From Squalus acanthias (taxonomy: Eukaryota), in NCBI GenBank assembly GCA_030390025.1, contig CM059431.1, positions 148,864,001-148,928,000 on the forward strand: a stretch of DNA of 64,000 nt. The letters run 5' to 3'. Shown piece by piece: positions 377 to 59,691 of the stretch. Within the stretch, counting starts at the first letter, position 1, and every line of letters begins with the position of its first letter. The notes beneath the pieces were generated by a model, which was given only the letters and a program-made list of their open reading frames with translations, did no database searches and was not told where the DNA came from. Made by a program: the position numbers and the translations under genes.

Positions 377-422
377 TAGAAACACTAACAGCAGCGAGAA
401 GGGGATAGTAAACCTTTGGTAA

Positions 423-1499
423 ACCCTCCCCTCCCCTTTCAGCATTCCGAAGGAAACGCTCCCTCCAGAACACCCTGCTCCACTCCTCAATCACTCACAA
501 CAGCGCCTTCCCTCCCTACGGTACCTTCCCGTGTAAGTGCAGGAGATGCAACACCTGTCGTTTGACGTCCTCCCTTCCCAATGTCCAGGGCCCCAAACAA
601 TCCTTCCAAGTGAAAAAGCGATTTACTTGTACTTCTTGCAATATTGTATAAGGACATAAGATCAGAAGAAATAGGAGCAGGAGTAGGCCATTTGACCCCT
701 CGAGCCTGCTACTCTATTTAATGAGATCATGACTGATCTGATCTTGGGATCAGCTCCAATTCCCTGCCCGCTCTCCATAATCTTCACTCCCTTATTGTTC
801 AAAAATCTGTCTATCTCCACCTTAAATATATTCAATGAACCAGCCTCCAAAGTTCTCTGGGGCAGAGAGTTCCACAGATTCCATACCATCTCAGGGAAGA
901 AATTCCTCCGCATCTCAGTTTTAAATCGGCGACTGTATTCGCTGCTGACGATGCCGTCTCCTCTACACTGGGGAGAACAAACGTAGATTGGGTGATCGGT
1001 TTGCGGAACACTTCTGTTCAGTCCGTAACCTTGACCCCGAGCTTCTGCATGCCTGTCACATTAATTATCTGGTCCCCTCCCACTCTGACCTCTCTGTCAT
1101 CGAATTCTTACAGTGTTCCAATGAAGCTCAATTTAAGCTCGAGGAACAGCACTTCATCTTTCTATTCGGGACTTTACAGACTTCTGGACTCAACATTGAG
1201 TTCCTCATTTCAGACCATAAACAAGGCCTCTATTATTTTCAGACAGCAGCTGTTGATATTTCTCCCATCCCCATTTGCAACAATTAACCACTCCTGCCTT
1301 CCACCCTGTCACAGACCTTCCCTTTCCTTCCTTCCTCCCATACTCCCTTTCCTTGCCCCTGCACCTGCTTTAAATCAGCGACGTCTCTAACTTTTTCCAG
1401 TGCTGACTAAGTGTCACAGACCTGGAACGGTAATACTGTTTCTCTCTCCACGGATGCTGCCTGACATGCTGAGTGTTTTTTTTACATTTTCTTTTTATT
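423..1499 (+). mobile_element. Penelope-like element, 3' portion (GIY-YIG endonuclease region plus pLTR-type tail)
   Basis: Translates as FTCTSCNIVY/CIRC..LLYTGENKRRLGDRFAEH...KLEEQHFIFLFGTLQTSGLNIEF, the GIY-YIG pattern. Tail 1390-1499 carries a degenerate hammerhead-like motif. Confidence 0.85.
651..932 (-). mobile_element. CR1 LINE 3' end nested inside the Penelope endonuclease region
   Basis: ORF 662-913 MRRNFF...WNSLPQR...FKVEIDRFL is the CR1 ORF2 C-terminus, with the CR1 3'UTR. It interrupts VY|CIRC of the host element. Confidence 0.9.
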
Positions 1500-1639
1500 A
1501 TTCCAGAGTACTCTTGTTAACTGCCACTGTTCAAGAATAATTTCCGTCGAGATCCTCGAGCCCACAACATCCCTTTTTTGAGCGGCTGGTGATCTTTGTT
1601 CTGGACGCAACGCGCTGATTGTGTGAGGTCACAGAGTGA

Positions 1640-1735
1640 ACTGTGCTCCTAATTTAGAGCAGAGGGATTTCCCCTAGTGACATCATTAGGCCTCACTGTT
1701 ATTGGCATTAATTACATTCATTGAACAAACAGACT
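1640..1735 (-). promoter_or_regulatory. Putative promoter of GPCR paralog C
   Basis: cattaattacattcattgaacaaaca (1706-1731) matches cattaattacagtcagtgaacaaaca of promoter A. gggatttccc (1664-1673) lies at the position of gggaaaccc in A. Confidence 0.55.
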
Positions 1736-1809
1736 CATTGATCCATTATCACCCCAACATTTCACTGCAACACAATCCAGCTCACATTATGCACGACATT
1801 TCATCCTTC

Positions 1810-2195
1810 CACAGTCCAGGAATTTAATTCCCAGGGCTGCTTAGATTAAACTGTTACTGCCTCAGTCCAGGAACTTAATTCCCACAGCTGCCTATATTAC
1901 ACTGCTCCCGCCTAATTCCTGGAGTTTCATTCCACGGCCAGCATGATTACACTGCTCCCACCTCATAACAGGAATTAAATTACTTGCTCCGCCTAGATTA
2001 CGCTGCTCCCACTTCAGTCCAGGAATGTCATTCCCAGGGCCACCAAATTTACACTGCACCCGCCTCATAACAGGAATTTAATTCCTTGGGATGCCTAGAT
2101 AACACTGCTACTGCTTCAGTACAGGAATTTCATTCCCAGGACTGCCGAGGGTACATGTTCCCGCCTTAGTCCAGCAACTTGATTCCCAGGGCATT
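1810..2195. repeat. 51-bp tandem repeat, about 7.5 copies
   Basis: Unit ~cagtccaggaatttaattcccagggctgcctagattacactgctcccgcct; consecutive starts at 1812 and 1863. Confidence 0.9.
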
Positions 2196-2299
2196 CTATT
2201 TGCCTGAATCTAGAACAAGAACAACAAGATAATTGTAATGATTGACCTCAACCAGCCAATCTTGTAATGGTGCTTTACAGAGGGGGAGAAAATAAAAAA

Positions 2300-4430: not shown

Positions 4431-4496
4431 ACATAGTCCTGAAAATTTTTCCTTTACAAGAATATATCGAATTACCTTTTGAAAGTTACTAGTAAT

Positions 4497-5605: not shown

Positions 5606-6617
5606 ACTATTGAATCTGCTTCCACCAGCATTTCCAAGAGTGCATTCCAGATTATCTTATTGCGTGATCAAGGTTCGTCCATTGGGTAATGACAAGCCAG
5701 CCAGTGGAAACAGATTCTCCTTACTTACTGTAACAAATCCTTTTACATTTTGAACACTTCTATTCAATATCCCCCTAGACTTATCTGCTCTGGCGAAGAA
5801 ACCCTGCTTCTCCAGTCTCTCCACATAACTGAAGTTGGATTCAAAACTGGCTCGGAGACAGGAAGCAGAGGGTTATGGTTGATGGGTGTTATTGTGAATG
5901 GAAGGCAGTTTCCAGTGGGGTTCCGCAGGGCTCGGTACTAGATCCCTTGCTTTTTGTGGGAAATATCAACGATCTTGATTTGAATATAGGGGGTATGATT
6001 ATGAAGTTTGCAGATGATTCTGAAATCGGATGTGTGGTTGATACTGAAGAAGGAAGCTGTAGACTGCAGGAAGATATCAATACATTGATCAGGTGGGCAG
6101 AACAGTGGCAAATGGAATTCAATCCGGAGAAGTGTGACGTAAGCGTTTGGGCAGGGCTAAAAAAGGAAAGGGAATACATATTAAATGGTAGGACACTGAG
6201 TAGTGTAGAGGAACAACGGGATCTTGGAGTGCATGTCCTTAGATCCCTGAAGGTAGCAGGCCAAGTAGATAAGGTGGTTAAGAAGACTTACGGAAAGCTT
6301 GCCTTTATTAGACGTGGCATAGCATACCAGAGCAGGGGGGTTATGCTTCAACTGTATAAAACACCAGTTAGGACTCAGCTAGAATACTGCATGCAGTTCT
6401 GGTCACCACATTACAGGAAAGATTTGATTGCAGTAGAGAGGGTACAGACGAGATTTACAAGGAAGTTGCCGGGAGTAGAAAATCTTAGCTATGAGGAAAG
6501 ATTGGATAGGTTGTGTCTGTGTTCCTTTGAACAGGGGAGGCAGAGAGGAGACCTTATTGAGGTGTGTAAAATTATGAGTGGCATAGATAAAGTGGATACA
6601 GAGGACCTATTTCCCTC

Positions 6618-6858
6618 AGAGTGATTATATCTCTGCCGAGGTGTGATAAAGGGCAGTTGGAAAGATTAACTGTAATCATCTGGCTGTGTTCTCTGACTAT
6701 ATATGCTGTGCCTATATATATCGCTTCACTTCACCTGACGAAGGAGCAGCGCTCCGAAAGCTTGTGATTTCAAATAAACCTGTTGGACTATAACCTGGTG
6801 TTGTGCGACTTCTCACATTTGTCCACCCCAGTCCAACACCGGCATCTCCACATCATGG
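6618..6858 (+). mobile_element. 241-bp Penelope pLTR / retrozyme-like insertion with 11-bp target-site duplication
   Basis: Flanked by ctatttccctc at 6607-6617 and 6859-6869; contains a hammerhead core and AATAAA. Confidence 0.8.
6731..6767 (+). ncRNA. Minimal type I hammerhead ribozyme
   Basis: tcac-CTGACGA-a-ggagc(agc)gctcc-GAAA-gc-TT-gtga: intact core, 4-bp stem I (tcac/gtga), 5-bp stem II, palindromic AAGCTT helix III region. Confidence 0.85.
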
Positions 6859-8406: not shown

Positions 8407-8952
8407 GAAAGGAGTCGGCAGCCCCGGTTAAGGCAGAGGATAAAGAGCACGGGAGGCCGAGGACAGCGAACCTGAAAGGAGTCGGCAGCCCCGGAGAAAG
8501 CAGAGGATAAGTCAGAGCAGCTGAAGGCAGTTCAATAGGGAAAGTAGGCCTATTAAAACACGCTTCGCAGTGCGATCTGCACAGAGTGCTGAGAGTTGGT
8601 TGAGTGAGGGAGTTAGGTGGTTGAGGAGTGGAAGGAGGAGCTCCCTTGCTTCGCCTTTGCTTTCCCTAACTTTACACTCTGCAGGATTTTGTTCTTACTT
8701 TACACCCAGGAAAGAGTCCGAGAGCGGGAGCAGTCAAACAACAACAACTGCAAAACCGCTAAATTGACGTCACAGCCAGTGAAGGAGAAGATTGGTAAGT
8801 AGGACCTGTTCAGTATTTCTACAGTCCAGTCGTTAAAGTAAAATTAAGGTCTCTAGTTTAGAGTGAGTAGTGTTTAAACTGAAGGACGGTCCCTAGTGTA
8901 TTTAATATTATTTAATTTAGAGGAAATAAAGATAGTAAATTGAGGGTAGGAC

Positions 8953-9744
8953 ATGGCAGGGCAGCTCGGCAGCGTCGAGTGCTCGTCCTGTGCTATGTGG
9001 GAAGTCAGGGACACTCTCGGTGTTCAAGGCGAACACGTGTGCAGGAAGTGTCTCCAGCTGCAGCTACTCGAAATACGCGTTTCGGAGATGGAGCTGCGGC
9101 TGGATTCACTGTGGATCATCCGCGAGGCTGAGATCTTAGTGGATAGTACATTTAACCAGGTGGTCACAACGCAGGTAAAGAGTGCACAGGCAGAAAGGGA
9201 ATGGGTGACCTCCAGACAGAGTGACAGAACTAGGAAGGTAGAGCAGGAGTCCCCTGTCTCCATGTCCCTCTCCAGCAGATATTGCGTTTTGGACACTGCT
9301 GGGGGAGATCGTTTGTCAGGGGAATGCAGCAAGTTCCATGTCCTTGGCACTACGAGTGACTCAGCTGCACAGGAGGGGAGTAAAAAGAGTGGGAGAGCAA
9401 TAGTGATAGGGGATTCTATCGTAAGGGGAACATATAGACTTTTCTGTGGCCGCAGACGTGACTCCAGGATCGTTTGTTTCCTCCCTGGTGCCAGGGTCAA
9501 GGATGTCACTGAGCGGCTGCAGGGCATTCTGAAGGGGGTATGTGAACAGCCAGAGCTCGTGGTCCTTATTGGTATCAACGACATATGTAGAAAGAGGGAC
9601 GAGGTCCTGCAAGCAGAATCTAGGGAGCTGGAAAATACATTAAAAAGCAGGACCTCAGAGGTAGTAATCTCAGGATTACTCACAGAGCCAATTGCTATCG
9701 AGAGCAGAATCAGGAGAAAAGACCAGGCTGGAGACATGTTGTAG
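8953..9744 (+). pseudogene. CR1 ORF1p (zinc finger/leucine zipper plus SGNH esterase domain), frameshifted near the C-terminus
   Basis: CSSCAMWE...HVCRKC zinc finger; IVIGDSIVR and FLPGARVKDV...IGINDI esterase blocks. Confidence 0.9.
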
Positions 9745-10045
9745 GAGGGAGGGATTTAAGTTCCTGAGGAATTGGGACCGATTCTGGGGAAGGTGGGAAC
9801 TGTACAAGCAGGACTGATTAAACCTTCTCAGTACCGGGACCAATATCATCGCAGGTAGTTTTTCCAGTGCTGTTGGGAAGGATTTAAACTAGTTTCTAAG
9901 GGGGCTAGGAACCTTAGTGTGGGCCCAGAACGGAGAGAAAAAAAGCTGGAAGTGCAAGTTAGAAAAGTAGTCAGCAAAACTAGTAGCGAGCAGAAACAAA
10001 GGCCAACAGTAAAGAGGGTCAAATTGCAGAAAAAATATGAAACAG

Positions 10046-12862
10046 GCAAAGCACTTTATCTAAATGCACGCAGCATTCGCAAAAAGGCAGATGAATAAAT
10101 GGCATTAATAGAAGTAAATGGATATGATGTAATTGCCAATACAGAGATATGTTTGCAGTGTAACCAAAGCTGGGAACTGAATGTTACAGGGTACTCAACA
10201 TTTAGGAAGGACAGACAAAAAGCAAAAGGAGGTTGCGAAGCGCTGTTAATAAGGGAGGAGATCGGTACGGTAGAGATAAAAGATCTTGACTCGGCCGATC
10301 GTTATGTAGAACTGGAATCAGTTTGGGTGGAGCTGAGAAACAGCAAAGGGCAGAAAACATTGGTGGGAGTTGTGTATAAACCACCAAACAGTAATGATAA
10401 TGTAGGGCACATTATCAATCTAGAGATTAGAAGTGCATGTAACAAAGGCAATGCGGTAATCATGGCGTACTTTAATCTACATATTGACTGGGCAAATCAA
10501 ATTACCACTAATGGTGTGGAGGACGAATTCTTGGAATGCATGCGAGATGGTTTCCTGGATCAGTATGTGGAGGAACCAACCAGGAAACAGACTATTCTGG
10601 ATCTGGTAATGTGTAGTGAGAAAGGGCTAATCAATAATCTTGTGGTAAAGGGGCCTTTAGGGACAAGTGAACATAATATGATTGAATTTTATATTAAGTT
10701 TGAGACTGATGTAGTCCAATCTGAAACTAAGGTCTTCAATCTAAACAGAGGAAACTACAAGGGTATGAGGGACAAATTGGCCATGTTAGATTGGGAGACT
10801 ACACTAAAAGGTATGAAGGTGGACATACAATGGCTAACATTCAAGGAAATAATGCATAATTTGCAACAAACATACATTCCTCTAGGGCATAAAACCCAAA
10901 AGGAAAATTGATCCAAAGATGGCTAACAAAAGAAATTAAAGCTAGTATTAAGTCAAAGGAGGAAGCTTATAAAGTTGCCAGAAGAAGCAGTCAGCCTGAG
11001 GAATGGGATCTTTTTAGAAATCAGCAAAGGGGGACCAATAAATTGATATAGGTTGGGAAAATGGAATATGAGCACAAACTGGCGAAAAATATATTTCGGA
11101 TCGTAAAACCTTCTATAGGTATGTTAAAAGGAAAAGACTGGCGAAGGTATATGTAGGTCCTATACAATCAGAGACGGGAGGATTTATAATGGGGAATGAG
11201 GGAATTGGCTGAGAAATTAAATACATTTTGTTTTCTGTCTTCACGGAGGAAGACACAAAACACCTCCCAGAAATACGAGAAAATCAAGGGTGTGGCGAGA
11301 ATGAGGAACTTAAAGAAATTATTATTAGTAAAAAAACAGGACTAGCAAAACTAATGGGACTAAAAGTCGATAAATCTCAAGGACCGGATAACGTACATCC
11401 TAGGGGTTTGAAAGAGTTGGGCATTGTGACAGTGGACGCATTGGTTGTCATCTTCCAAAATGTTATAGATTCTTTAACGGTTCCTGCAGATTGGAGGATA
11501 GCAAATGTAAACACGCTATTTAAGAAAGGAGGGAGAGAGAAAACGGGTAACTACAGACATATAAGCCTCACATCTGTAGTTGGGAAAATGCTGTAATCTA
11601 TTAGAAAGGATGCAGTAACTGGGCACATAGAAACTAAAAGTAAGATTAGGCAGAGTCAACATGGATTTATGAAAGGGAAGTCCTGTTTGACAAAGCTATT
11701 GGAGTTCTTTGAGGATGTAAATCGTGGAAAAGACAAATGGGAACCGGTAGATGTGGTGTATTTGGATTTTCAGAAGGCCTTCGATAAGGTGCCACACAAG
11801 AGGTTGGTGAAGAAACATTAGGACACATGGAATTGGGGGTAATATACTAGCATGGATTGATAATTGGTTAACAGACAGAAAACAAAGAGTAGGGATAAAC
11901 GGGTCTTTTTCAGGATGGCAGGCTGTGACTAGTGGCGTACTGCAAGGATCAGTGCTTGGGCCCCTACTATTCAAAATCTATATCAATGATTTGGATGAGG
12001 GGACTAAATGTAACATTACCAAATCTGCTGATGATGCAAATCTAGGTGGAAGTGTAATTTGCGAAGAGGATGTGAAGAGGCTTCAAGTGAATCTTGACAG
12101 GCTCATTGAGTGGGCGAGAACATGGCAGGTGGATTATAATGTGGATACATGTGAAGTTATCCATTTTGGTAGAAAAAAAAGAAGGCAGAGTATTTCGTAA
12201 ATGGTGAAAGATTGGGGAATGCAGATGCTCAAAGAGAAATGGGATTCCTTTTACATGAGTCATTGAAATTGAATGTGCAGGTGCAGCAAGCCATTAGGAA
12301 GGCAAATGGCATGTTGGCCTTTATTACAAGAGGTTTTCATTTGAGTAGTAAAGATTAATTATTCCAATTATATAGGGCCTTGGTGAGACCCCACCTGGAG
12401 TACTGTATACAATTTTGGTCTCCTTATCTGTGGAAGGATACACTTGCCATAGAGGGAGTGCAACGAAAGTTCACGAGATTCATTCCTGGAAAGGCGGGAC
12501 TGTCGTATGAGAAGAGATTGAGTAAACTAGGCCTGTATTCTCGTTAATTATGAAGAATGAGTGGGGATCTCATTAAAGCATACAAAATTATTACAGGGCT
12601 TGATATGGTGGATGCTGGGAGAATGATTCCCTTGGCTGCGGGGTTTCGAACCAGGGAGCACAGCCTCAGGATAATGTGCAGGCCATTGAGGACTGAGATG
12701 AGAAGTAATATCTTCACACAGTGGGTGGTGAATATTTGGAATTCTCTTCCCCAGAGGGCTGTTGTGGCTCAGTTATTGGGGATATTCAAAACAGAATGCG
12801 ATTGATTTCTGTCTAGTAAGGGCATCAAGGGATATGGCGATAGGGCCGGTGAATGGAGTTGA
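10046..12862 (+). pseudogene. CR1 ORF2p (APE endonuclease plus reverse transcriptase), multiple stops and frameshifts
   Basis: Fragments 10099-10911 (EN), 11228-11596, 11925-12200 (SGVLQGSVLGP...SADD) and 12557-12805. Confidence 0.9.
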
Positions 12863-21669: not shown

Positions 21670-21960
21670 GGGTGAGGCCATGGTGTGATTTGAACACAAG
21701 GAGTAGAATATTAAGCTCGAAGTGTTGCCCGATCGGGAGCAAATGTAGGTCAGCGATCACACGGGTGATTTGTGAACGGGTCATGATGCGTGTTAGTAGA
21801 TGGACAGCAGAGTTTTGGAAGAGCTCTAGTTTATGGAGACTTGTAACTGGGAGGCCGGCCAAGAGAGCATTGGAATAGTCGATTCTGGATTTAACAAATG
21901 GGGATAATGCAGCGCAATGGCTGAGGCGGGTAGGAGACGGATGATATTGTGGAGGTGGTG
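21670..21960 (-). mobile_element. L2 LINE fragment (paralogous copy at 59970-60440)
   Basis: LAGLPVTSLHKLELFQNSAVHLLTR...ITRVIADLHLLPI in ORF 21488-21862. Confidence 0.8.
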
Positions 21961-21974
21961 ATTCAGAGGATTAC

Positions 21975-22185
21975 AGATCTAATTGCTGGATATAGAGACT
22001 TAACAGGGCAAAGACGAGAGAGTAAATTGCAAGAACTGTAATGCAGTTAGCAAAGGATTGCAGAGGTAATAGTTGGATACAGAGACTTACCGGGAACAAC
22101 AACAGCAACAAGGAGGGGCGAGTAAATTACATTAACAGTAATGCAGTGAAACAAGGTTATCGAATAGCTGGATAGAGAGACTTAC
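21975..22185 (-). repeat. ~95-bp degenerate repeats of the exon-1 end plus donor at the intron start of paralog A
   Basis: Second GTAAG donor at 22090-22086; third, mutated donor (gttaag) at ~22004-21999. Confidence 0.8.
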
Positions 22186-22366
22186 CAGGAACACCGACAG
22201 CAGCAATGAGCGGATAGTAAAAGTGTTCAATAACCTTAAGTGCTAAATAGATCCAAATTTCTAATGATATTCTATCATGATATGCAGAAAGATGGTCAAT
22301 CTCCCAGATGAAACTCTTGCCCACTGTTGTAACATTCCAATCGATTGTTCTCAGATTCTGATCCAT
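22186..22366 (-). CDS. GPR139/GPR142-like class A GPCR, coding exon 1 (paralog A): N-terminus plus first half of TM1
   Basis: ATG at 22366 in acaATGG context; MDQNLRTIDWNVTTVGKSFIWEIDHLSAYHDRISLEIWIYLALKVIEHFYYPLIAAVGVP (60 codons + 1 nt), then GTAAGT. From recall, it aligns with human GPR139 VYYSLLLCLGLP, whose single coding intron lies at this position. Exon 2 not found in the window. Confidence 0.8.
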
Positions 22367-22479
22367 TGTTCTAACATTCCAAACCACTGTTCTCAGATTC
22401 CGACTGCTCCCTCTGTGGAGCAGCGAGCTGATCCCTGTTAGTGCCGGTGGTGATGCTCTCACTGACACTGCGGGATAAC

Positions 22480-22700
22480 ACATTGAAATGAGTCCTTTAT
22501 TAATAGAAGAGGGAAACCCTGCACTGATACAATTAGCGTCCATGGAGACTGACATTGATTACAGTCACTGAACAAACAGCTTCAGTTAAGCCATGGAGAC
22601 TGACATTAATTACAGTCAGTGAACAAACAGCTTCAGTTAACCCCTTTCGATCCAGCATGTTTTGCACCACAGTAAAGTAGAACATTTCTGCAGTCCGAAT
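22480..22700 (-). promoter_or_regulatory. Putative promoter of paralog A
   Basis: 51-bp tandem duplication with TGTTTGTTCA and TAATT/TAATC motifs (22540-22640), GGGTTTCCC (22519-22511) and TATTAATAA; conserved with 59135-59345. Confidence 0.6.
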
Positions 22701-23225: not shown

Positions 23226-25102
23226 CCTTCAAATATATCGCTGTTCCTTCATCGTCACTTGGTCAAAAGCCTGAAATTCTTTCCTTTACAGTATTGTGGG
23301 AGCACCTTCACCACACGGACTGCAGCGGCTCAAGAGGAAGGCCCACCATTTTATCATGGGTAAATAGGGATGGACATGTAATAGCGGCCTTGACAGCGTC
23401 AACCATATCCTGAGAAAAAAATTATAAAAATATTACAAATGGAATAAAATTACTGATTTTGTTTCTCACTGATTGAAACCAGTCGTGCCTTTGATCAGAG
23501 TGGCGCGTCACGATCCGCTAAAAAACTTGTCAACACAACCTGTCTCACCAATTCTATGGATTTATGATTGATACTGCTCACACTTTCCCAATTTCCCTAT
23601 ATTTTCAAATGTTGCTTGATAAAGTTCCACATATTACCAAAATTGAAGCCCTGGGATTAAATTGGCACTGTCAACAGTGACTGGTGCGAGGTATATCAGT
23701 ATTACAGTGACTGGTGTGGGGTGTAACAGTCCAGAGTGTGGCATGTATCAGAGGGTTACAGTGAGTGGTGTGGGGTATATCAGAGGATTACAGTGAGGGA
23801 TGTGGAGTATATCAGAGGGTCACAGTGAGTGGTGTGGGGTATATCAGACTGTTGCAGAGAGGGTTGTGGGGTACATCAGACTGTTACAGTGAGGGGTGTG
23901 GGGTATATCAGAGTGTGTTACAATGAGTGGCGTGGGGTATATCAGTGTGTTACCTTGAGAATGGTGGGGTATATCAGTACGACAGTGACTGGTGTGGGTT
24001 GTAACAGTCCAGAATGTGACATGTATCAGAGTGTTACAGTGAGGGGTGTGGGTTTTATCAGAATATTACTTTCAGGGGATCTGGCATATATCAAAGAGTG
24101 TTAGAGTGAAGGGTGCGGGTATATCAGACTGTTACAGTGAGCAGTGTGGGGGATATCAGTGTGTTACCATGATGGGTGTGGGGTATATCAGAGTGTTACA
24201 GTTATTGGTGTGGGGTATATCCGAGTGTTAAATTGAGGGGTGTGGGTTATATCAGCGTTTTACAGTGAAGAGTGTGGGGTATTTCAGAGTGTTACAGTGT
24301 GGGATGTGGGTTGTTTCAACGTGTTACAGTGTGGATTGTGGAGTATATCAGAATGTGTTTCAGTGAGTGGTGTGGGGTATATCAGTGTGTTATAGTGAGG
24401 GGTGTGGGGTATATCAAAGTGTTACGGTGAAGCATGTGGGGAACACGAGTGTGTCTCAGTGAGGGTTGTAGGGTATATCAATGTGTTACAGTGAGATGTG
24501 TGGTCTATACCAGATTGTTACATTGAGGGGTGTGTGTTATATAAGAGAGTTAGAGTGAGAGGTGTGGGGGTTATCAGCTGTTTACAGTGAATGGTGTGTG
24601 GTATATCAGTGTTACAGTGATGGGCGTGGCGTATGTAAGAATGTTAGAGCGAGTGATGTGGGATAAAGCAGATTGTTTCAGTGAATGGTCTTTTCTTTAT
24701 CATAATGTTACAGTGAGGGTGTGGGTTATATCAGAGTGTTACATTGAGGGTTGTGAAGTTTATCAATGTATGTTATAGTATGGGGTGTGGGGTATATAAG
24801 AGTGTTATATTGAGTGATGTGGGGTGTATTAGAGTGTTATAGTGTCGGGTGTGGCGTATATCAGAGTGTTACAGTGAGGGGTGTGGAGTATATCAGAGTG
24901 TGGAATTTTGATGAAGGTGGAGTCTATCAGAGTGGTGCGAGGTATATCATTATTACAGTGAGGGGTGTGGGGTATATCAGATAATTACAGTGAAGGTTTG
25001 TGAGGTATATCAGTGTTAGAGTGAGGGTGTGTGGTATATCAGAGTGTTGCAGTTAGTGGAGTGCGGTATATCAGAGTGTTACAGTGAGGGGTGTGTGGTA
25101 TA

Positions 25103-33898: not shown

Positions 33899-34376
33899 TG
33901 ATAGGGTAAATTGTAGGTTTGGATAACATTTAAATGTATATTAGAGTTGCATTAGAAGCTATGCTATTAAAACTTTACACTAAATGCAAGGCATGACTGG
34001 AAACTTGACCAAAATCAGACCAAAGCGCTGTGTCAGCATTTAACACTAGCAGTAGCTGTAATAAAGTTTCTGCACGCATACTTGAACCAGGAGCATTGAA
34101 CAAAGATAATGGTAATTGGAGGCAGGATAAAGATAAACAAAACTGCAGAAAGTCAGAAGTACGGGCCTTGGGTCTGGGACAGTTGAGATAGCGGGAAGCA
34201 TCTGCCAAAGCCTACTTAACCGGTAATTAACGGTTGATTATGTATAAATAAACTGCCGTGACCATTCTAAATTTGAGAGACTTCGCTACGCTGAAGGCTC
34301 TCCCCTGCATGCTTGTAATAAAGTTTCTTTCATATCGCAGCCTACCCGGGACACCTAGTTGTTTATTTCCACAACA
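33899..34376 (+). mobile_element. Solo LTR (478 bp), copy 2
   Basis: Highly similar to copy 1, with the same GCGG TSD (33895-33898 and 34377-34380) and the same satellite flanks. Confidence 0.85.
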
Positions 34377-36479: not shown

Positions 36480-39400
36480 AATTTCCCTTTGCAAGGTCGC
36501 ACCAAACACTCCCGTGATAGATACAGCATGAATTAAATAGAGAGTAAAGCTCCGTCTACACTGTCCCATCAAGTACTCCCAGGGCACGTAAAGCAATGGT
36601 TAGATAAAGAGTAATTATTTCTCCACTTTGTCCGATGAAACACTCCCAGGGCACGTAGATCACTGGTTAGATACAGAGTAAATCTCCCTCTGCACTGTTA
36701 CATCAAACACTCCGAAACCAGGTAAAGCACTGGATGGATACAGAGTATAGCTTATTCTACAGTGTCCCATCAAACAGTCCCTGGGCAGGTACAGCAGGGG
36801 TTAGATACAGAGTAACGTTCTCTCCAAACTGCCCCATCAAACATGCCCAGTGCAGGTACAATCTCAGGTTAGATACAGAGTAAAACACCCTCTACACTGT
36901 CCCAGCAAATACTACCAAGGCCGGTACAGCAAGTTTTAGAAACAGAGTGAATCTCACTCTACACTGTCCAAGCAAACACTCCCAGGGCCGGTACAGCAGG
37001 GTTAGATACAAAGTAAAGCTCCCCCTACACTATCCCATCTAGAAGTCCCAGGGCATGTAACGCAAAGGTTAGATAAAGAGTAAAGCTTAATCTACATTGT
37101 CCCATCAAACAATCCCAGGGCACGCACAGCACTGTTTAGGTACAGAGTAAATCGCCCTCTGCACACACCCATCAAACACTCCCAGGGCAGGTACAGCACG
37201 AGTTAGATACAGAGTAAATCTCCCACTAAACAGTCCCAGCAAGCACTCCCAGGGCAGTTGCAGCACGGGTTAGATACAGAGTAAAGCTCCTACTACACTG
37301 TCCCATCAAACACTCCCAGGCCATGTAGAGCATGGGTTAGATACAGAGTAAAGCTCCCACTACATGTCCCATCAAACACTTCCAGGGAACGTGCTGCACT
37401 GGTGAAGGACAGAGTAAACCTTCCTCCGCACTGTCCCATCAAACTCTCCCACGATAAGTACAACGTGAGTTAGATAGAGAGTAAAGATCCCTCTATACTG
37501 TCCCATCAAACATTACCAGGGCACTTAAAATAATGGTTAGATAGTTAGTAATGCTGCGTCAAATGTCCGATCAAACACTCCCAGGGCAGGTACAGCACGG
37601 GTTAGATACAAAGTAAAGCTTCCTCTACACTGTCCCATCAAACACTCCCAGGGCACGTGCAGCACTGGTGAAAAGCAAAGTAAAGCTTCCACTGCACTGT
37701 CCCATCAATCAATCCCAGTAGAGGTAGAGCATGAATTAGATAGAGAGGAAAGCTCATTGTACACTCTCCCATCAAACACGCCCAATGCAGGTAAAGCACT
37801 GGTTAGATGCAGAGAAAAGATTCCTATACACGGTCCCATCAAGCAGTCCCTGGGCAGGTACAGCAGGGGTTAGATGCAGAATAAAACTCCCTCCAAATTG
37901 CCCCATCAAACACTCCCAGGGCAGGTACATCTCGGGTTAAATACAGATTAAAACACACACTACACTGTCCAAGAAAACAATCCCAGGGTAGGTACAGCAC
38001 TGGTTAGATAAGGAGTAAAGCTTCCTCTGCACAGACAAATGAAACACTCCCAGGGCAGGTACAGCACGGGTTAGACACAGAGTAAAGCTCCCACTGCACT
38101 GTCCCATCAAATACTCCGTGTGCATCTACAGCACTGGTTAGCTGAAGAGTAGGGCAACACGGTGGCATAGTGGTTAGCACTGGTGCCTCACAGCGCCAGG
38201 GACCCGAGTTCGAATCTGACCTCGGGTGACTGTCTGTGTGGAGTTTGCACATTCTCCCCGTGTCTGCGTGGGTTTCCTCCGGGTGCTCCGGTTTCCTCCC
38301 ACAGTCCAAAAATGTGCGGGTTAGGTTGATTTGGCTATGATAAATTAACCCTTAATGTTAGGGGGGGATTAAATATGTGGGGTTATGGGGATAGGATGGG
38401 ATATGTGTACTGTGGGGATTAATAGCAGGGACAGGGTACTGGATTTGGATGATCAGCCATGATCGTATTGAATGGTGGAGCAGGCTCGACGGGCCGAATG
38501 GCCTACTCCTGCTCCTAGATTCTATGTTTCTATGTTTCTATGTAAATCTCCCTCTGCACACACCCATCAAACACTCAAAGGGAAGGTACAGCACGAGTTA
38601 GATACAGAGTGAATCTCCCTTGGCACTGCCCCATCAAACTCTCCTAGGGTAGCTGCAGCACGAGTTAGATACAGAGTAAAGTTCCCACTAAACAGTCCCA
38701 GGAAGCACTCCCAGGGCATGTGCTGCTCTGGTGAAACACAGAGTAAATCTTCCTCTGCACTGTCCCATCAAACACTCCCACGATACGTACAACTTGAGTT
38801 ACACAGAGAGTAAAGTTCCCTCTACGCTGTCCCATCAAACATTACCAGGGCAGGTACAGCACGGGTTAGATACAGCGTAAAGCTCCCTCTACACTGTCCC
38901 ATCAAGCACTCCCACGGCACGTAAAGCAATGGTTAGATAGGCAGTAATGCTTCCTTCACATTTACCGATCAAGCACTCACAGGGCACGCACAGTTCTGGT
39001 TAGATACAGAGTAAATCACCCTCTGCACTATTCCATCAAACACTCCCAGGGCACGTGCAGCACTGGTGAAATGCAGAGTAAAGCTTCCTCTGCACTGTCC
39101 CATCAATCACTCCCAGTATAGGTACAGCATGAGTTAGATAGTGAGGAAAGCTCCTTGTACAATGTCCGATCAACACTCCCAAAGAAGGTAAAGCTCTGGT
39201 TAGATAAAGATTCAATCTTCCTGTACACTGTCTCTTCAAACAGACACTGGGCATGTACTGCTCGGGTTAGATACAGAGTAAATCGCCCTCTAAACTGTCC
39301 CAGCAAACACTCACGGGGCCGGTATAGCACGGGGTAGATACCGAGTGGATCCTCGTCTAAACTGTCCCAGCTTACACTCCCAGGTCCGGTACTGCACGGG

Positions 39401-40560
39401 TTAGATATAGAGTAAAGCTCCCTCTACACTGTACCACCTAACAGTCCAAGGGCATGTAACGAAACGGTTAGCTAATGAATAAATCTTACCCTACATTGTC
39501 CCATCAAACACTCCCAGGGCACGTACAGCATGGGTTAGATACAGAGTAAAGCTCCCACTACACAGTCCCATCAAATACTCCGAGTGCACGTAAAAATCAG
39601 GTTAGGTACAGATTAAATCATCCTCTGCACACACCCATCAAACCCACAGGGCAGGTACAGCACTACATTGACCCAGCAAACACTCCCAGGGCAGGTTATT
39701 CACGGGCTAAATACAGCGTAAATTTTCCACTACACCGTCGCATCAAACACTCCCAGAGCATGTGCAGCTCTGGTGAAAGACAAAGTAAAGCTCCCACTGC
39801 ACTGTCCCATCAAATACTCCGTGTGCATCTACAGCACTGGTTAGCTGAAGAGTAAATCTCCCTCTGCACACACCCATCAAACACTCAAAGGGAAGGTACA
39901 GCACGAGTTAGATACAGAGTGAATCTCCCTTGGCACTGCCCCATCAAACTCTCCTAGGGTAGCTGCAGCACGAGTTAGATACAGAGTAAAGTTCCCACTA
40001 AACAGTGCCAGGAAGCACTCCAGGGCATGTGCTGCTCTGGTGAAACACAGAGTAAATCTTCATCTGCACTGTCCCATCAAACACTCTCACGATAAATACA
40101 ACATGATTTAGATAGAGAGTAAAGTTCCCTCTACACTGTCACATCAAACATTACCAGGGCAGGTATAGCACGGGTTAGATACAGCGTAAAGCTCCCTCTG
40201 CGCTGTCCCATCTATCACTTCCAGGGCACGTAAAGCAATGGTCAGATAGGCAGTAATGCTTCGTCAAAGTTGTCCGATCAATCACGCCCAGTGCACATAC
40301 AGCACTGGCTAGATACAAAGTAAATCTCCCTCTGCATTGTTCCATCAAACACTCGTAGGGCACGTGCAGCACTGGGAAAACACAGAGTAAAGCTTCCTCT
40401 GCACTGTCCCATCAATCACTCCCAGTATAGGTACAGCATGAGTTAGATAGAGAGGAAAGCTCCTTGTGCACTGTCCCATCTAACTCTCGCAAAACAGGTA
40501 AACCAATGGTTACTTACAATGTAAAGCTTCCTCTCCACTGCCCCAGCAAACACTCCAAGC
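36480..40560. repeat. 67-bp satellite (cactcccagggcaggtacagcacgggttagatacagagtaaagctccctctacactgtcccatcaaa) with higher-order blocks
   Basis: Unit starts at 37576 and 37643. Diagnostic variant unit (cacgata.gtacaac) recurs at ~37450, ~38780 and ~40088. Confidence 0.95.
38152..38541 (+). mobile_element. HE1-type V-SINE (tRNA head, V domain, CR1-derived tail)
   Basis: A box tggcatagtgg (38163-38173), B box gttcgaatc (38208-38216), V domain gtgtggagtttgcacattctccccgtgtctgcgtgggtttcctccggg, CR1 3'UTR and (tttctatg)n tail. Confidence 0.9.
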
Positions 40561-40579
40561 GCAGCGAAAGCAAAATTGA

Positions 40580-43160
40580 CTCCGGACCAAATGAAGATTC
40601 ATAGCTTCAGGTCAAGCATGGGCAAGAAAACCTCCTGCTGCTTACCACATACCGCCCTCACTCAGCTGATGAATCAGTACTCCTGCATGTAGAACAAAAC
40701 TTGGAAGAAGCACCGAGAGTGGCAAGGGCGCAGAATGTACGCTGGATGAGGGACTTCAAGGTCCATCACCAAGAATGGCTCGGTAGCACCACTATTGACC
40801 GAGCTGGCCGAAACCTGTAGACATAGCTCCCAGTCTGGGCCTGCGACATTAGGTGAGCGAACCAACACGAGGCAAAAATGTACTTGACCTCGTCCACACC
40901 AAACTATCTGTCACAGATGTATCTGTCAGAGAAAGCCTTGGTAGATGTGACCATCGCACAGTCATTGTCGCACGAAGTCCCATCTTCAAACTGAGGACAC
41001 CCTGCATCGTGTTGTGTGGCACTACCACCGTGCTAAATGGGCATCCATGAGGCGCTATTGGCCATCCGCAGCAGCAGAATTTTATTACACCACAATCTGT
41101 AACATCATGGCCCGCCATATGCCTCACTCTAACATTACCATTAAGCCAGAGGAGCATCCCTGGTTCAATAAGGGGTGCAGAAGACCGTGACAGGAGCAGC
41201 ACCAGTCGTACCTAAAGTGAGGTCGCAGTCTGGGGAAGCTGCAACACAGGATCATATGCATGCTAAAAAGCAGAAGCAGCATGCTATTCACAGGGCAAAG
41301 CGACCCCACAATCAACGGAGCAGATGAAAGCTTTACAGACCGGCCTTATCCAGTCGTGAATCGTGGTGGACCATTAACCAACTAACGGGAAGAGGAGACT
41401 CCATAAATGTCCCCATCCTGAATGATGGTGGAGCCCAACACGTGAGGGCAAAGGACAAGGCTGAAGTATTTTCAACCAATTTCAGCCAGAAGTGCCGAGT
41501 GGATGATACATGTCGGCCTCCTCCTGAGGTCCCCACCATCACCGAAGCCAGTCTTCAACCAATTCGATTTACTCCACGAGATGTCAAGAAACGGCTGAGC
41601 GCACTGGATACAGTAAAACCTACGTGTCCCGAAGACATCTCGGGTGTCTTGCTGAAGACTTGTGTCCAGAATTAGCCGGGCCTCTAGCCAAGTTGTTCCA
41701 TTGCAGCTACAGAACTGTCATCTATCCGACAATGTGAACAACTGACCAGGTATGTCCTGTCCACAAAAAGCAGGACAAATCCAAACCGGCCAATTAACGC
41801 CACATCAGTCTACTCTCAATCATCAGTAAAGTGAACGAAGGTGTCATCGACACTGCTATCAAGCATCAGAAATAACCTGCTCACTGAAGCCCAGTTTGGG
41901 TTCCGCCCAGATCACTCGGCTCCCGACCTCATTACAGCCTTGTTCCAAACATGGACAAAGCAGTTGAATTCCAGAGGTGAGGTGAGAGTCACTGCCCTTA
42001 ACATCAAGGCAGCTTTTGACCGAGTGTGGCATCAAGAATCCAAGTAAAACTGAAGTCATTGGGAATCAGGCGGTGAAATCTCCACTGGCTGGAGCCATAC
42101 CTAGCACAAAGAAAAATGGTTGTGGTGGTTGAAGGTCAATCATCACAGCCCCAGGACATCGCTGCAGGAGTTCCAAGGGCAGTGTCCTAGGCCGAATCAT
42201 CTTCAGCTGCTTCATCAATGACCTTCCATCCAACAAACTGTCAGAAATGGGGATTTTCGCTGATGACTGCATAGTGTTCAGTACCATTCACAAATCCTCA
42301 GATTATGAATCAGTCCATGCCCGCATGCAACAAGACCTGGAGACGTTGAGCCTTGGACTGATAAGTGGCAGATAACATCCGCGACACAAAACTGAGAGGC
42401 AATGGCTATCTCAAACATGTGAGTGTCTAACAACCTCCCCTTGTTATTCAACTGCGTTACCATCACAGAATCCCCAACCATCAATAGCCTGTGGTCACCA
42501 ATTACAAGAAACTTAACTGGATCAGCCATATAAACACTATGGCAACAAGAGCAGGTCAGAGGCCAGGTATTCTGCGGCGAGTGTCTCGCCTCCTGACTCC
42601 CCAAAGACTTTCCACCATCTACAAGCCACAAGTAAGGAATGTGATGGAATACTCTCCACTTGCCTGGATGGGTACATCTCCAACAACAGTCAAGAAGCAC
42701 CACGTCATCCAGGACAAAGCAGCCCGCTTGGTTGGCAGCCTATCAACCAATTAAACATATCACTACCTCCACCACAGCGCACCGTGGCTGCAGTGTGTTC
42801 CTTCTATGAGATGCACTGCAGCAACTGGCCAAGGCTTCTTCGGCAGCACCTCCCAAACCCACGAACGCTTCCATCTAGAAGGACAAGGGCAGCAGGCGCA
42901 TGGGAACACCACGACCTCCAAGTTCACCTCCAAGTCAAACCTCATCGTGATTTAGAAATATATCGCCGATCCTTCATCATCGCTGGTTCAAAATCCTGCC
43001 ATTCCCTCCCGAATAGCACTGTGGCAGTACCATCACCACACGGACTGAATTGGTTTAAGAAGGCGGCTCACCACAACCTTCTCGAGGCGATTAGGGATGG
43101 GCAATAAATGCTGGCCTTTCCAGCGACGCCCACATCCCATAAACGAATTTGAAAAAAAGT
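40580..43160 (+). mobile_element. LINE of a second CR1/L2-group family (EN-RT, degenerate)
   Basis: EPTRGKNVLDLV, AQFGFRPDHSAPD...ALNIKAAFDRVWH, FADD at ~42256; tail caataaatgctggcc...cccacatccca. Confidence 0.9.
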
Positions 43161-44747
43161 TCTGCCCCTCCGACAGTGCAGCGGACACTCAGTATCGCCC
43201 CTCCCACAGTGCAGCGCTTCCTCCGTACTGCCCGTATGACAGTGCTGCGCTCACTCAGTACTGCCCCTTAGACATTGAAGTGCTCTCTCAGTACTGCATT
43301 TCCGACAGTGCAGCACTCCCTCACTACAACCCTCCGACAGTTTAGCGCTCGCTCTGTCCTGCCACTCCGACAGTGCCGTGCTCCCTCAGTACTACCCCTC
43401 CACCAATGCAGCGCTCCCTCATTACTGACCATCTGACAATGCAACGCTCCCTCAATACTGACCATCGTCCAGTGCAGCGCTCCCTCAGTGCTGCACCTCC
43501 GACAGAGCAGCGCTCCCTCAGTACTGATCCTCCGAAAATGCAGCTCTCCCACAGTACTGCCCCTCTGACAATGCAGAGCTCCCTCAATACTGCCCCACTA
43601 ACAGTGCAGCTCTCCGGCATTGCTGCGCCTCTGACACTGCACCGCTCCATTACTACTGCCCCTCCGACAGGGCAGCGCTCCCTCAGTACTGCCCAACAGA
43701 CAGTGCGGCACCTCCTCAGTACTGCCCCACCGACAGTGTAGCGCTCCCTCAGTACTGTCCCTCCGACATTGCAGCGTTCCTTCAGTACTGCCCCTGACAG
43801 TGCAGCGCACCCTCACTACTGCCTCTCCGAACGTGCAGTGCTCCCTCAGTACTGCCCCTCTGATAGTGCAGTGCTCCCTCCGTACTGCCCCCTGACAAAG
43901 CAACGCTAACTGAGTACTGCCCCTCCCACAGTACAGCTCTCCCTGAGTAATGCCCCTCCGACAGTGCAGTGATCCTTCATAACTGCCCCTCTGACAGTGC
44001 AGCGCTCACTCAGTACTTACCCACCAACAAAGCAGTGCTCACTCAGTACTGCCCAACCGACAGTGCAGTTCTCCCTCAGTACTGCCCCTCTGACAATGCA
44101 GCGCTCCCTCAAGTTGCCCCTCCGACTTTGCATCTCTCCCTTTTTACTGTCCCTCCTACAGTGCAGCGCTCCCTCAGTCCTGATCCTCTGACAATGCAGA
44201 GCTCCCTCAGAACTTCCCCTCCAACAGTGCAGCGCTCCCTCAGTACTGATCCTCCGACAATGCAGTGCTCCCTCAGTACTGCCCCTCCGACAATGCAGCT
44301 CTCCCTCAGTACTTCCCCTCGGACAGGGCAGAGCTCCCTCAATAATGCCCCTCACAACAGCGCAGCTCTCCCTCTGTACTGCCCCTCCGACAGGGCAGGG
44401 CTCCCTCTGTATTTCCCCTCCGAAAGTGCGGCAATCATTTAGTACTGACCCTCCGAAATTGCAGCGGTCTCTCAGTACTGCCCCTCTAACAGTGCAGCGC
44501 TCAATCAGTACTACCCCTCCGACAGTACAGCGCTCCCTCGGTACTGCCCCTCTGACAGTGCAGTGCTCCATCAGTACTGTTCCTCTGACAATACAGCGCT
44601 CCCGCAATACTGCTCCTCCGACAGTGCGACACTCCCTCAGTAAAGCCCCTCCGACAGTGAAGCGCAATCAGTGCTGCCCCTCTGATAGTACAGCGCTCAC
44701 TCGGTACTGCCACACTGACAGTGCAGCGCTCCCTCAGTACTGCCCGA
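43160..44747. repeat. 33-bp minisatellite (same unit as 4815-5510), about 48 copies
   Basis: ccgacagtgcagcgctccctcagtactgcccct units. Confidence 0.95.
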
Positions 44748-48834: not shown

Positions 48835-49805
48835 GTGTTATAGAGATATACCAGCAGAGGGAGGCAGAGAGAAGGGTGCAACTGATTGTGGAGTGATATC
48901 AAGAGAGACCAGCAGAGGAAGGCAGGCAGCAGTGTGTAACTTAATGAGCAGTGATACAGAGAGATCCCAGCAGAGGGAGAGAGAGATAAAGGTGTAACTA
49001 ATTACTGTGATACAGAGAGACAGCAGCAGAGTTCGTTGGATAAAGTTGAGTATGAGTACTGTGAAACAGAGAGAAACCAGTAGAGGGAGATAAATAAAGG
49101 TGAGACTGCGTACTCTGATACAGAGAGGCACCAGCAGAGGGAGATTGATAAAGGTGAGACTATGTAGAGTGAAACAGAAAGATACAAGCACAGGGAGAGA
49201 GATAAAGGTGACATTGAGTGTGCTGTGATACAGAGAGATCGCAGCAGAGGGAAATAGATAAAGGTGAGACCGAATACAGTGATACAGAGAAACACCAGCA
49301 GAGGGAGTAGATAAAATGAGACTGAGTACTGTGATACAGAGAGCAACCAGCAGAGGGAGATAGATAAAGGTGAGACTGAGTACTGCAATAACGAGAGACA
49401 CCAGCAGAGAGAGATGGATAAAGGTGAGACTGAGTACTGTCGGTGATATAGAGAGACACCAGCTGAGGGAAATAGATAGAGATGGAACTGAGTGCTGTGA
49501 TACAGAGGGACACCAGCAGAGGGAAGTAGATAAAGTTGAGACTGAGTACTGTGATACAGAGAGACACCAGCAGAGGGAAAAAGTTAAAGGTGAGACTGAG
49601 TGCTGTGATACAGAGAGGCACCAGCAGAGGGAAATAGATAAAGCTGAGACTGAGTACTGTGATGCAGAGAGACACCAGCAGAGGGAGATGCATAAAGCTG
49701 AGACTGAGTACAGTGATACAGAGAGACACCAGCAGATGGAGATAGATAAAGTTGAGAGTGAGTACTTTGATACAGAGAGGCACCAGCTGAGGGAGATTGA
49801 TCAAG
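48835..49805. repeat. 54-bp tandem repeat (gagactgagtactgtgatacagagagacaccagcagagggagatagataaaggt)
   Basis: Visible periodicity; gives 18-aa repeat ORFs. Confidence 0.92.
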
Positions 49806-49808
49806 GCA

Positions 49809-54422: not shown

Positions 54423-54424
54423 AT

Positions 54425-57085: not shown

Positions 57086-57089
57086 TATT

Positions 57090-58420
57090 TTTTTTCATTT
57101 TTATTAATTCATGGGATGTACCATGGCTGGCACCGACAGCAATTATTGCCCATCCCTAATTGCCCTTTAGAAGGTGGCTTTGAGCCGCCGTCTTGAACAG
57201 CTGCGACTTTTCTCCCACATTGCTGTTACGGAAGTAGTAACAGGATTTGTACCCAGCGACGATGAAGGAACGGCGATATACTTCCAAATCATGAAGGTGT
57301 GTGACTTGGAAGGGAACTTGAAGGTGGTGATGTTTCCATACGCCTGCTACCCTTTACTTCTAGGTGGTAAAATTCGCGGGTTTGGGAGATGTTGTCAAAG
57401 AAGCCTTGGCGATTTGCTGCAGTGCATCTTGTAAATGGTACACACTGCAGCCACGGTGCGCCGGCGTTGGTTGGAATGAGCGTTTAAGGTGGTGGTTGTG
57501 GTGCCAATATAGCGGGCTGCTTTGTACTAGATGATGTCAAGCATCTTGAGTGTTGTTATAGCTGCACTCATCCAGACAAGTGGAGAGTATCCCATTACAC
57601 TCCTGACGTGTGCCTTGTAGATTGTGGACAGGCTTTGGGGTGTCAGGAGCTGAGACAATCGCCGAAGAATACCCAGGCTCTGACCTGCTCTTGTAGCCAC
57701 AGTTTTTATGTGGCTGGTCCCGGTCCAGTTAAGATTCTGGTTAATGGTGACCCTCAGGATATTGATGATAACGGATTTGGCGATGGTAATGCCATTGAAT
57801 ATCACGGGGTGGTGACACTCGTTGGAGATCGTCATTGGCTGGCACTTGTGTTGTGCGAGTGTTACCTGCCACTTATCAGCCCAAGCCTGACATTCGTCCA
57901 GGTCTTGCTGCATGCGGGCACGGACTGCTTCATTATCGGAGGTGTTGCGAATGGAAGTGAAACTGCATTTGTAAGCAAACATCCCCATTTCTAATCTTAT
58001 GTTGGAGGAAAGTTCATTGATGAAGCAGCTCAAGATGGTTGAGCCTAGTGCACTGCCCTGAGCAATCCCTGCAGCGATGTCCTGGGGCTGAGATTATTGG
58101 CTTCCATCAACCAGAGCCATCTTCCTTTGTGCTAGGTATGACTACAGCCAATGGAGGGTTTTCCCCTTATTTCCAATGACTTCAATTTTACTAGGGCTCC
58201 TTGCTGCCACACTTGGTCACATGTTGTCTTGATGTCGAGGGCAGTCACTCTCACCTCTCCTCTGGAATTCAGCTCCTTTTTCCATGTTTTCGACCGAGGC
58301 TGTAATGAAGTCTGGAGCCGAGTGGCCCTGGCTGAACCCAAACTGAGCGTCCGTGAGTAGGTTATTGGTGAGTAGGTAACAATTAATAACCCTGTCGATG
58401 ACACCTTTCATCACTTTGCT
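57090..58420 (-). mobile_element. Second-family LINE 3' portion
   Basis: ORFs 57527-58033 and 58132-58404 are homologous to 41800-43130. Confidence 0.88.
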
Positions 58421-59130
58421 AAATTCACCAGTTTGTCTATATCCTCCTGAAGCCTACTCCCAGCCCACTCAGTGTTAACTACATTTCCTAGTTTTGTGTC
58501 TTTTGCAAACGTTGAAATTATGCACTTTATATATATATATATATATATATATGACAACATGTTTAATATTCATCTAAATGATCAGTGGTCCGAATAGCGT
58601 CACCTGGGAGACACCACTGCATACTTCACTCCACTCTGAGCAACAACCAGTCACCACTACTCTCTGTTTTCTGTCCCTTAGCCAATGTCAGATCCACACT
58701 GCCACTGCCCCTTTATTCCTAACAAGTTTATTCAAAGACACTTAATCAAATGCATTTTTAAAGTCATGTCGAAACGTTAACCACATTATGCTCATCAACC
58801 CTCTCCATTACTTGATCAAAGAACTCAATCAAGTTTGTCAGACACACTTTGTCGTTAACATATCCGTGCTTGTTGTCATTTATTAATCCATATTTCTTTC
58901 CAAGTGACAGGTAATTTTCTCCGGGTATATGGCCTCTAGAAGTTTCCCCACCGCCTACGTTAGCCTGACTGGCCCGTTGTTACAGTGTTTATACCTCTCC
59001 CTTTTTAAACTGGTTGTAACATTGGCAACCCTACAATCCTTTGGCCCACTCCCATCTGAAAGGAGGATTGAAAGATTCTGGGCAGTTCCTGCACTATTTC
59101 CACCATTACTTCCCTCAGCAACACTCATAC
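58420..59130 (-). mobile_element. CR1 fragment containing a (TA)n microsatellite at 58528-58551
   Basis: PKDCRVANVTTSLKRE-type CR1 motif in ORF 58955-59137. Confidence 0.75.
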
Positions 59131-59134
59131 ATCC

Positions 59135-59345
59135 CATCCAGACCGCGGAAATGTTCTACTTTACTGTGTTACAAAAGGTGCTGGATTGAAATGGGTTAAC
59201 TGAAGGTGTTTGTTCAGTGACTGTAATTAATGTCAGTCTCCACGGCTTATCTGAAGCAGTTTGTTCAGTGACTGTAATTAATATCATTCTTCATGGACCC
59301 TAATTACATCAGTGCAGGGTTTCCCTCTTTTATTAATAAGGGATT
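59135..59345 (+). promoter_or_regulatory. Putative promoter of paralog B
   Basis: Two 51-bp-spaced copies of gtttgttcagtgactgtaatta (59208, 59259), GGGTTTCCC (59317-59325) and TATTAATAA (59331-59339); inverted paralog of 22480-22700. Confidence 0.6.
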
Positions 59346-59426
59346 CCATTCAATGTGTTATCCCATAGTATCAGTGAGAGCATCTCCTCCGGCACTAACA
59401 GTGATCAGTGCGCTGCTCATCAGAGA

Positions 59427-59552
59427 GTGAGTCGGAATCTGAGAACAGTAGATTGGAATGTTACAACACTCGGTTGGAACCTGAGAACAGTAGATTGGAA
59501 TTATACAACAATGGATCAGAATCTGAGATCATTAGATTGGAATGTTACAACA
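59427..59552 (+). repeat. Three in-frame 42-bp repeats (14 aa, xxxNLRTVDWNVTT) spanning the 5'UTR and N-terminus of paralog B
   Basis: Units start at 59427 (gtg), 59469 (ctc) and 59511 (atg). Confidence 0.85.
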
Positions 59553-59691
59553 ATGGACAAGGGTTTCTCCTCGGCGTTGTACATGATTTCTAATTATTAT
59601 GATTTTATGTCAATCGCAAATAAGATCTATTACGCACTTCTGATCATGCAATGCATTTACTATCCCCTCCTTGCTGCTGTTGGTGTTGCTG
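59511..59691 (+). CDS. GPR139/GPR142-like class A GPCR, coding exon 1 (paralog B)
   Basis: acaATGG start; MDQNLRSLDWNVTTMDKGFSSALYMISNYYDFMSIANKIYYALLIMQCIYYPLLAAVGVA (60 codons + 1 nt), then GTAAGT at 59692; same length and phase as A. Exon 2 not in the window. Confidence 0.8.

Follow-up and report, generated by a model that had tools for sequence, protein, structure and literature searches.

The stretch of the Squalus acanthias genome considered here (GenBank assembly GCA_030390025.1, contig CM059431.1, positions 148,864,001 to 148,928,000; its whole 64,000 nucleotides are called the window) raises the question of how several first exons of G-protein-coupled receptor (GPCR) type can occur in it without any seven-transmembrane (7TM) exon. 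The preliminary description recognised three such exons, A, B and C, and proposed that they are variable first exons feeding one receptor body. Searches were made against the 3.7-Gb genome, in which the contig is denoted C7 and the window is C7:148864001-148928000. The analysis indicates that A and B each begin a class A GPCR gene of their own, made up of two exons; at this locus the idea of variable first exons on one body failed, as C is broken, B has its own exon 2 and it is the whole-gene unit that is repeated. We consider it probable that a foreign promoter and exon 1 were grafted upstream of whole compact genes, whose original first exon, here represented by C, has been decaying within the intron.

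Exon A (22186..22366, minus strand) is an intact coding exon 1 of 181 nt, with the ATG at 22366, an open frame of 60 codons plus one nucleotide (phase 1), one N-glycosylation sequon (NVT) and the C-terminal residues YYPLIAAVGVP, followed after 22186 by the donor CCTG/GTAAGT. Exon B (59511..59691, plus strand; ATG at 59511) is likewise intact, open and 181 nt long, ends in phase 1 with YYPLLAAVGVA and has its donor, GCTG/GT, after 59691. The common YYPL.AAV.V ending and the GT donors reported for all three exons are present, whereas the donors are not identical, as C reads TCTA/GT. The tblastn search with exon 2 of four relatives as queries gave, at E ≤ 1, no match to a 7TM exon in any part of the window, in agreement with the earlier observation that none lies between A and C. 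The partner of exon A was found where it had been expected, beyond C and 1.6 kb left of the window, at C7:148862415-148861519 (minus strand). The donor of A meets the acceptor at C7:148862414 in frame across a 23.8-kb intron, with GTG as the junction codon. As no 7TM exon lies between A and C and the next one is 1.6 kb to the left and in frame, exon A most likely splices over C to it, judging from anatomy and frame. The partner of exon B lies 2.8 kb right of the window at C7:148930780-148931676 (plus strand), behind a 7.1-kb intron.

With 100 kb added on each side, a total of 264 kb was scanned by tblastn and contained four intact long first exons and four second exons. They are paired strictly 1:1 (units A, A', B and D), which the preliminary description had named beforehand as a result that would speak against it. 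The A' exon and its exon 2 are located 53-58 kb to the left; A and A' are colinear duplicates about 55 kb apart and 88-96% identical, and in unit D exon 2 carries a frameshift. Joined to their own exon 2, A, A' and B each yield a stop-free frame of 360 aa. Every unit in the 264 kb consists of an intact long exon, a C-type remnant and an exon 2, the remnant lying 2-3 kb ahead of exon 2. The remnant is whole in A and A' and partial in B and D; the C-type exon of B itself has been deleted, leaving its downstream donor repeats and 1.6 kb of 3' intron. Database proteins of two shark species join a long exon of the A/B type to the matching exon 2. Genome-wide, exon A had 599 first-look candidates (150 scored) and exon B 559, of which all 150 scored were matched at E ≤ 1.3e-13, which rules out chance.

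Two features of the first exons were observed besides. Each is followed by two to three degenerate copies of the exon end with GTAAGT (window 21950-22185 on the minus strand, 59692-59950 and 60-376), spaced at about 75-100 bp in long and compact types alike, which are possible cryptic or decoy donors. The long exon also contains a 42-bp repeat (window 22321-22400 and 59435-59557) which encodes 14 aa, among them an N-glycosylation sequon, and frequently brings an ATG of its own. Its copy number is variable, with up to seven consecutive motif matches at C218:226017-226290.

The second exons of A and B matched Pfam 7tm_1 with 68.3 and 73.7 bits (cut-off 30.5) and carry a DRF motif. GPR139 presumably has one coding intron at this position, in transmembrane segment 1 (TM1). 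The designation as GPR139-like was upheld in so far as human GPR139 is the best solved-structure match of the A exon 2 (E 9e-8, residues 2-280; next family E 1.7e-4), at a distant 34.9 bits, below what a one-to-one orthologue of vertebrate GPR139 would be expected to show, so that it serves as a nearest-name label; in NCBI and UniRef the closest proteins, from two sharks, are named 'probable G-protein coupled receptor 139'. With a 100-aa piece of exon 2 as query, 3,701 first-look candidates were obtained. All 150 scored were 80-87% identical to a shark relative, and the others may include different receptors; these counts are lower bounds or rough ceilings and not gene numbers. The candidates are spread over many unplaced contigs and over C7, C21 and C29, and an exact 34-nt acceptor pattern had 162 matches against none for its reversed control. 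These results describe a very large birth-and-death family of shark receptors, with hundreds to thousands of copies.

The element described earlier as a third exon of 1.17 kb is composed of three parts, all of which belong to a broken exon. Its 5' stub (1503..1559, minus strand; reading ..IILEQWQLTRVLW) has lost the start codon, with ACG at 1547 where sister copies have ATG, and its frame stops after 21 codons. A 1,077-bp insertion (426..1502, plus strand) follows. It consists of some 0.8 kb of a truncated retroelement, in antisense orientation to the gene, within which a second insertion of about 280 bp is nested. The last part is a 49-nt 3' remnant (377..425, minus strand; ..KVYYPLLAAVSVS) that encodes YYPLLAAVSVS, ends at 377 with the donor TCTA/GTAAGT and has no acceptor in front. 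The broken frames of the insertion resemble an endonuclease which we take to be of the GIY-YIG/Penelope type; a Pfam search with 48 aa of it gave no match. The search with the DNA of the C promoter returned 469 candidates, 40 of them scored as matches. In all 30 loci examined the insertion sits at the same point, right after the stub, and the stub and 3' remnant have decayed differently from locus to locus.

On the other hand, in 13 of 35 regions upstream of second exons a short exon 1 is open and uninterrupted by the insertion, has a C-type promoter and lies some 2 kb ahead of exon 2 (the compact genes), and two of these element-free genes, L104 and L105, carry the empty site of C letter for letter across the junction. 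The sequences thus identify C as the original first exon of this compact two-exon subfamily. With no ATG, a 1.08-kb insertion and neutral divergence, C reads as dead and unable to supply an N-terminus. Two other readings of C were rejected: that it forms two exons around a spliced-out insertion, since the 3' remnant of C is preceded by a purine-rich stretch that offers no AG acceptor, and that it is read through the insertion, the longest stub frame being 86 codons and ending far from the 3' remnant (26 of the 30 loci have a recognisable stub). One insertion-split fossil of the C type, L067 (C3652:177348), lacks a long exon in the 31 kb upstream of it, being either an orphan body or a gene with a longer intron.

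The promoters of the three units are related, as had been described, whereas that of C is of a different type. The long-type promoter of exon A (22400..22700, minus strand) consists of a 51-bp module, present twice, that has TGTTTGTT and TAAT cores, followed by GGGTTTCCC and a TATA-like TATTAATAAA; the factors concerned are presumably Fox, homeodomain and kappaB-like. The promoter and 5' leader of exon B (59141..59510, plus strand) are of the same long type, 87% identical to A over 296 nt, and include untranslated copies of the 42-bp repeat. The C promoter (1560..1790, minus strand), trapped in the intron of A, is of the compact-subfamily type; its only match to the A promoter in the window is 30 nt long (90%), and the duplicate of C gave 70% over 117 nt. 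A 51-bp satellite lies upstream of it (1813..2192), with similar sequence upstream of other C-type copies.

The comparison of the A and A' units showed 97.3% identity for the promoter of the long exon, 96.7% for the exon and 96.2% for exon 2, against 91.7% for the C promoter, 92.3% for the insertion, 92.0% for the C intron and 87% for the C exon end, so the C promoter has been diverging at the rate of the intron. In the 35 of 66 loci that have both regions, the ratio of promoter to intron divergence was 0.66 in compact genes (n=11), 0.85 in fossils (n=19) and 1.36 in genes with an open inner exon (n=5, see below); TGTTTGTT was retained in 11/11, 10/19 and 1/5 of them, respectively. A role of the C promoter as a conserved enhancer, hinted at by the alignment of fossils, is weakened by these ratios and by the A/A' identities.

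The 5' and 3' parts of the long-exon genes are discordant in their ancestry. In the promoter tree, from which a motif filter had dropped seven loci, 28 long-type rows were split from 16 C-type rows, fossils included, with support of 100/99 and about 0.5 changes per site. In the exon-2 and 3'-intron trees the long-exon genes are nested among compact genes, with bodies about 0.1 apart. The 3'-intron tree, in which nine of 43 rows were left out (five other-subfamily genes, D, c1091, L118 and L126), placed A, A', B and one more gene together with three compact genes (99/97) and 16 others in a separate clade (99/97), called here the first and the second lineage. A single clade for the 20 non-compact bodies was rejected (67.8 log-likelihood units worse; approximately unbiased test, p-AU 1.3e-5), for a group that was defined after viewing the tree and in which eight of the 20 rows have no located long exon. 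The long-type promoters, a single clade, thus stand on bodies of two lineages whose inner exons belong to different compact subtypes. Moreover, locus L097 combines an A-type promoter (83.5% over 170 nt, against 69.5% over 82 nt to C) with a short exon 1 and a different intron of its own, and is by its sequence a candidate for the donor lineage, represented by this single locus. None of the loci examined here was found to combine a long exon with the exon 2 that originally belonged to it.

The capture that we favour would have proceeded as follows. The promoter and first exon of one subfamily would have been placed upstream of a complete compact gene of another, most simply when, in a head-to-tail array, the gene lying upstream lost its exon 2 by deletion. 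As a first exon has no splice acceptor, the donor of the borrowed exon could join only the exon 2 of the compact gene, the original exon 1 being skipped, in keeping with the anatomy and the frame. The gene would then have had two starts, of which the inner one lost its constraint and decayed. The surviving stages of decay are open inner exons (second lineage), exons split by the retroelement (the fossil C of unit A) and deleted ones (B). The tree test indicates that grafting, or else a subsequent swap of gene bodies, took place at least twice, and each unit was multiplied by whole-gene duplication, which is seen directly. What was gained is speculative: possibly a new promoter and the 14-aa repeat with its N-glycosylation sequons, mostly lacking in the sampled compact exons. 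In the window the fusion breakpoint should lie between 21950 and 2200, which is filled with repeats.

In the second lineage the inner exon is trapped without an insertion, and in 14 of 24 copies it keeps the ATG, 30 open codons and a GT donor. At C2561, C2671 (inner exon at 1.620 Mb) and C3707 (inner exon at 0.481 Mb), read end to end, an open short exon lies between an intact long exon and a single exon 2, likewise intact, and no other exon 2 intervenes; in four further intervals no exon 2 separates the long from the short exon, and in some genes of this lineage insertions have displaced the inner exon by about 10 kb. Genes with two open first exons per body, absent from the window, therefore exist as DNA in this lineage, and they invite the explanation that both promoters are used to put two N-termini on one 7TM body. 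We regard this as unlikely. The other ten inner exons are disrupted, whether by a stop, a frameshift, a GA donor or a missing ATG, against three of 30 long exons (Fisher p 0.010, for copies that are not independent), and the +6 T of the donor in compact genes has been lost in 24 of 24. The selection tests used 20 of the 24 inner exons (gap-free), 28 of the 30 long exons and 17 second exons. The ratio of nonsynonymous to synonymous rates (dN/dS) of the inner exon was about 1.4 (range 1.1-1.9), not different from neutral (p 0.39), and 1.1 even among the 14 open copies, compared with 0.25 for the TM1 codons of compact genes (p 0.01) and 0.19 for the start of exon 2; parsimony changes were spread evenly over codon positions 1, 2 and 3 (26/25/28). 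The inner promoter is kept no better than the intron. The inner exon thus appears to be evolving neutrally and does not look maintained. The explanation by two working promoters also concerns two exons per body, not an array, and is inapplicable to C in the window. Its stronger form, an exchangeable cassette of long promoter and exon 1 that repeatedly takes over compact genes, with both starts used in the second lineage to give long glycosylated and short isoforms of each 7TM body, is given a similarly small chance; it would be a variable-first-exon system caught between birth and decay, among hundreds to thousands of receptor genes.

Duplications on the side of exon 2 also occur. Two second exons 7.6 kb apart (C1923:544769 and 552341) lie downstream of one pair of long and short exons, and L107:1-1247 contains a duplicated 3' intron.

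Several results weigh against the capture as proposed. Statistically, the difference in constraint between inner exons and working ones is weak (Fisher p 0.075 and 0.095), and the dN/dS of long exon 1, 0.47-0.63, was not significant; together these point to low power, the inner exon having only 30 codons. Between A and A', exon 2 shows 20 nonsynonymous against 11 synonymous codon differences, so that the constraint on gene A is modest. Identity between A and A' is also high 500 bp upstream and into the intron (96.6-97.1%, with one block of 94.9%), and gene conversion could explain part of it. Among fossils the C promoter is better kept (0.86-0.92) than the insertion (0.69-0.88), in loci that were chosen by promoter similarity and in which the promoter/intron ratio is still below 1. 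The trees would look the same after a single capture followed by crossovers, and L097 is missing from the promoter tree because of the motif filter, its exon 2 falling among compact genes with weak support (87/57). The shark database proteins are gene models whose RNA support is not visible. Among 15 runs sharing sequence with the exon 2 of A (best share 0.21) none is on record as RNA, and no joint of exon 1 and exon 2 of gene B was present among the 15 joints listed out of 286, which came from contigs of four possible-RNA runs of other organisms at 80% likeness and were swamped by intronic repeats.

The second explanation derives A and C from a duplication in tandem of exon 1 within one gene, with fast divergence afterwards and no capture. 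One module is indeed common to all promoters, and at C7:149.27-149.31 Mb two long exons 5.9 kb apart and 99.9% identical stand before a single C fossil and a single exon 2, the latter carrying a stop; this duplication (L082/L083, C7:149297-149309 kb) is either a recent event or an assembly artefact. Divergence within one gene fits poorly with promoters of the long and C types about 0.5 changes per site apart on bodies only about 0.1 from those of compact genes. It is also hard to reconcile with the single long-type clade on bodies of two lineages with inner exons of different compact subtypes, and with the A-type promoter on L097, a gene with a different intron. We therefore consider this explanation improbable, somewhat more so than the use of both promoters. 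The least likely explanation makes A an orphan exon and takes the 7TM exon to the left of the window for the silent remnant of a gene killed when C was hit; it could draw on the lack of any read joining the two, the repeat-filled 23.8-kb intron, the fossil L067 without a long exon and the two second exons with stops and one with a frameshift found behind fossils, but it is opposed by the stop-free 360-aa frames of A, A' and B, by the same-strand order of long exon, fossil and exon 2 in every long-exon unit read end to end and by the database proteins that carry the join.

The window also contains repeats. Large satellite arrays with units of 32, 67, 33 and 54 bp (23746-26416, 30287-40564, 43158-44745 and 48951-49806) occupy the stretch between the divergent promoters of A and B, the 32-bp array beginning about 1 kb upstream of the exon A promoter. 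Long open stretches occur at 5833-6621, 8950-10908 and 26619-29980, inside or beside the exon A intron, in fragments of long interspersed elements (LINEs) which, from their resemblance, we take to encode a reverse transcriptase, an esterase-type first open reading frame (ORF1) and an endonuclease.

If the capture is correct, the locus shows one way in which a large shark receptor family diversifies. A promoter and N-terminus that can be swapped onto another ligand-binding body would uncouple the site of expression from the ligand. The trapped exon marks lineages, and its graded series (open, split, deleted) could be used for measuring the decay of an alternative promoter. There is also a hazard for annotation, as open inner exons are liable to be mis-called as the gene start. 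For the 64-kb window itself, long introns and a fossil explain the lone first exons, and an attractive false lead is removed.

L-Trp and L-Phe activate GPR139, an orphan receptor of class A (PMC7318219, PMC5863515); the passage of PMC12208981 concerned does not mention sharks and makes no statement on GPR139 exons. The literature search on GPR139 in sharks and cartilaginous fishes, within a scope that excluded supplements and most subscription papers, found no description of the family or of its architecture, and the shark family is apparently undescribed; shark genome papers could still include it under another name or in supplementary tables. GPR139 is a single conserved gene, in contrast to the hundreds to thousands of copies here.

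Compared with the protocadherin and UGT1A clusters, the genes of the window likewise have promoter-bearing first exons with donors of the same phase, and acceptor-less inner exons that would be skipped; the own promoter of each first exon is in the shark genes recognised by sequence. Unlike in those clusters, no shark body has more than two first exons, and each has an exon 2 of its own; duplication affects the unit as a whole, and where the clusters maintain their inner exons, that of the shark genes is dead or neutral. Chimeric genes between tandem neighbours offer the closer comparison. In haemoglobin Lepore, CYP11B1/CYP11B2 and Drosophila Sdic, as proposed here, the coding body of one paralogue is driven by the 5' regulatory region and the start of another, and Sdic was likewise amplified after the fusion. 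The shark fusion would differ from all three in its position upstream of the recipient promoter, so that the whole promoter and exon 1 of the recipient became trapped in an intron, and in that it seems to have been recurrent and to have founded a subfamily of hundreds.

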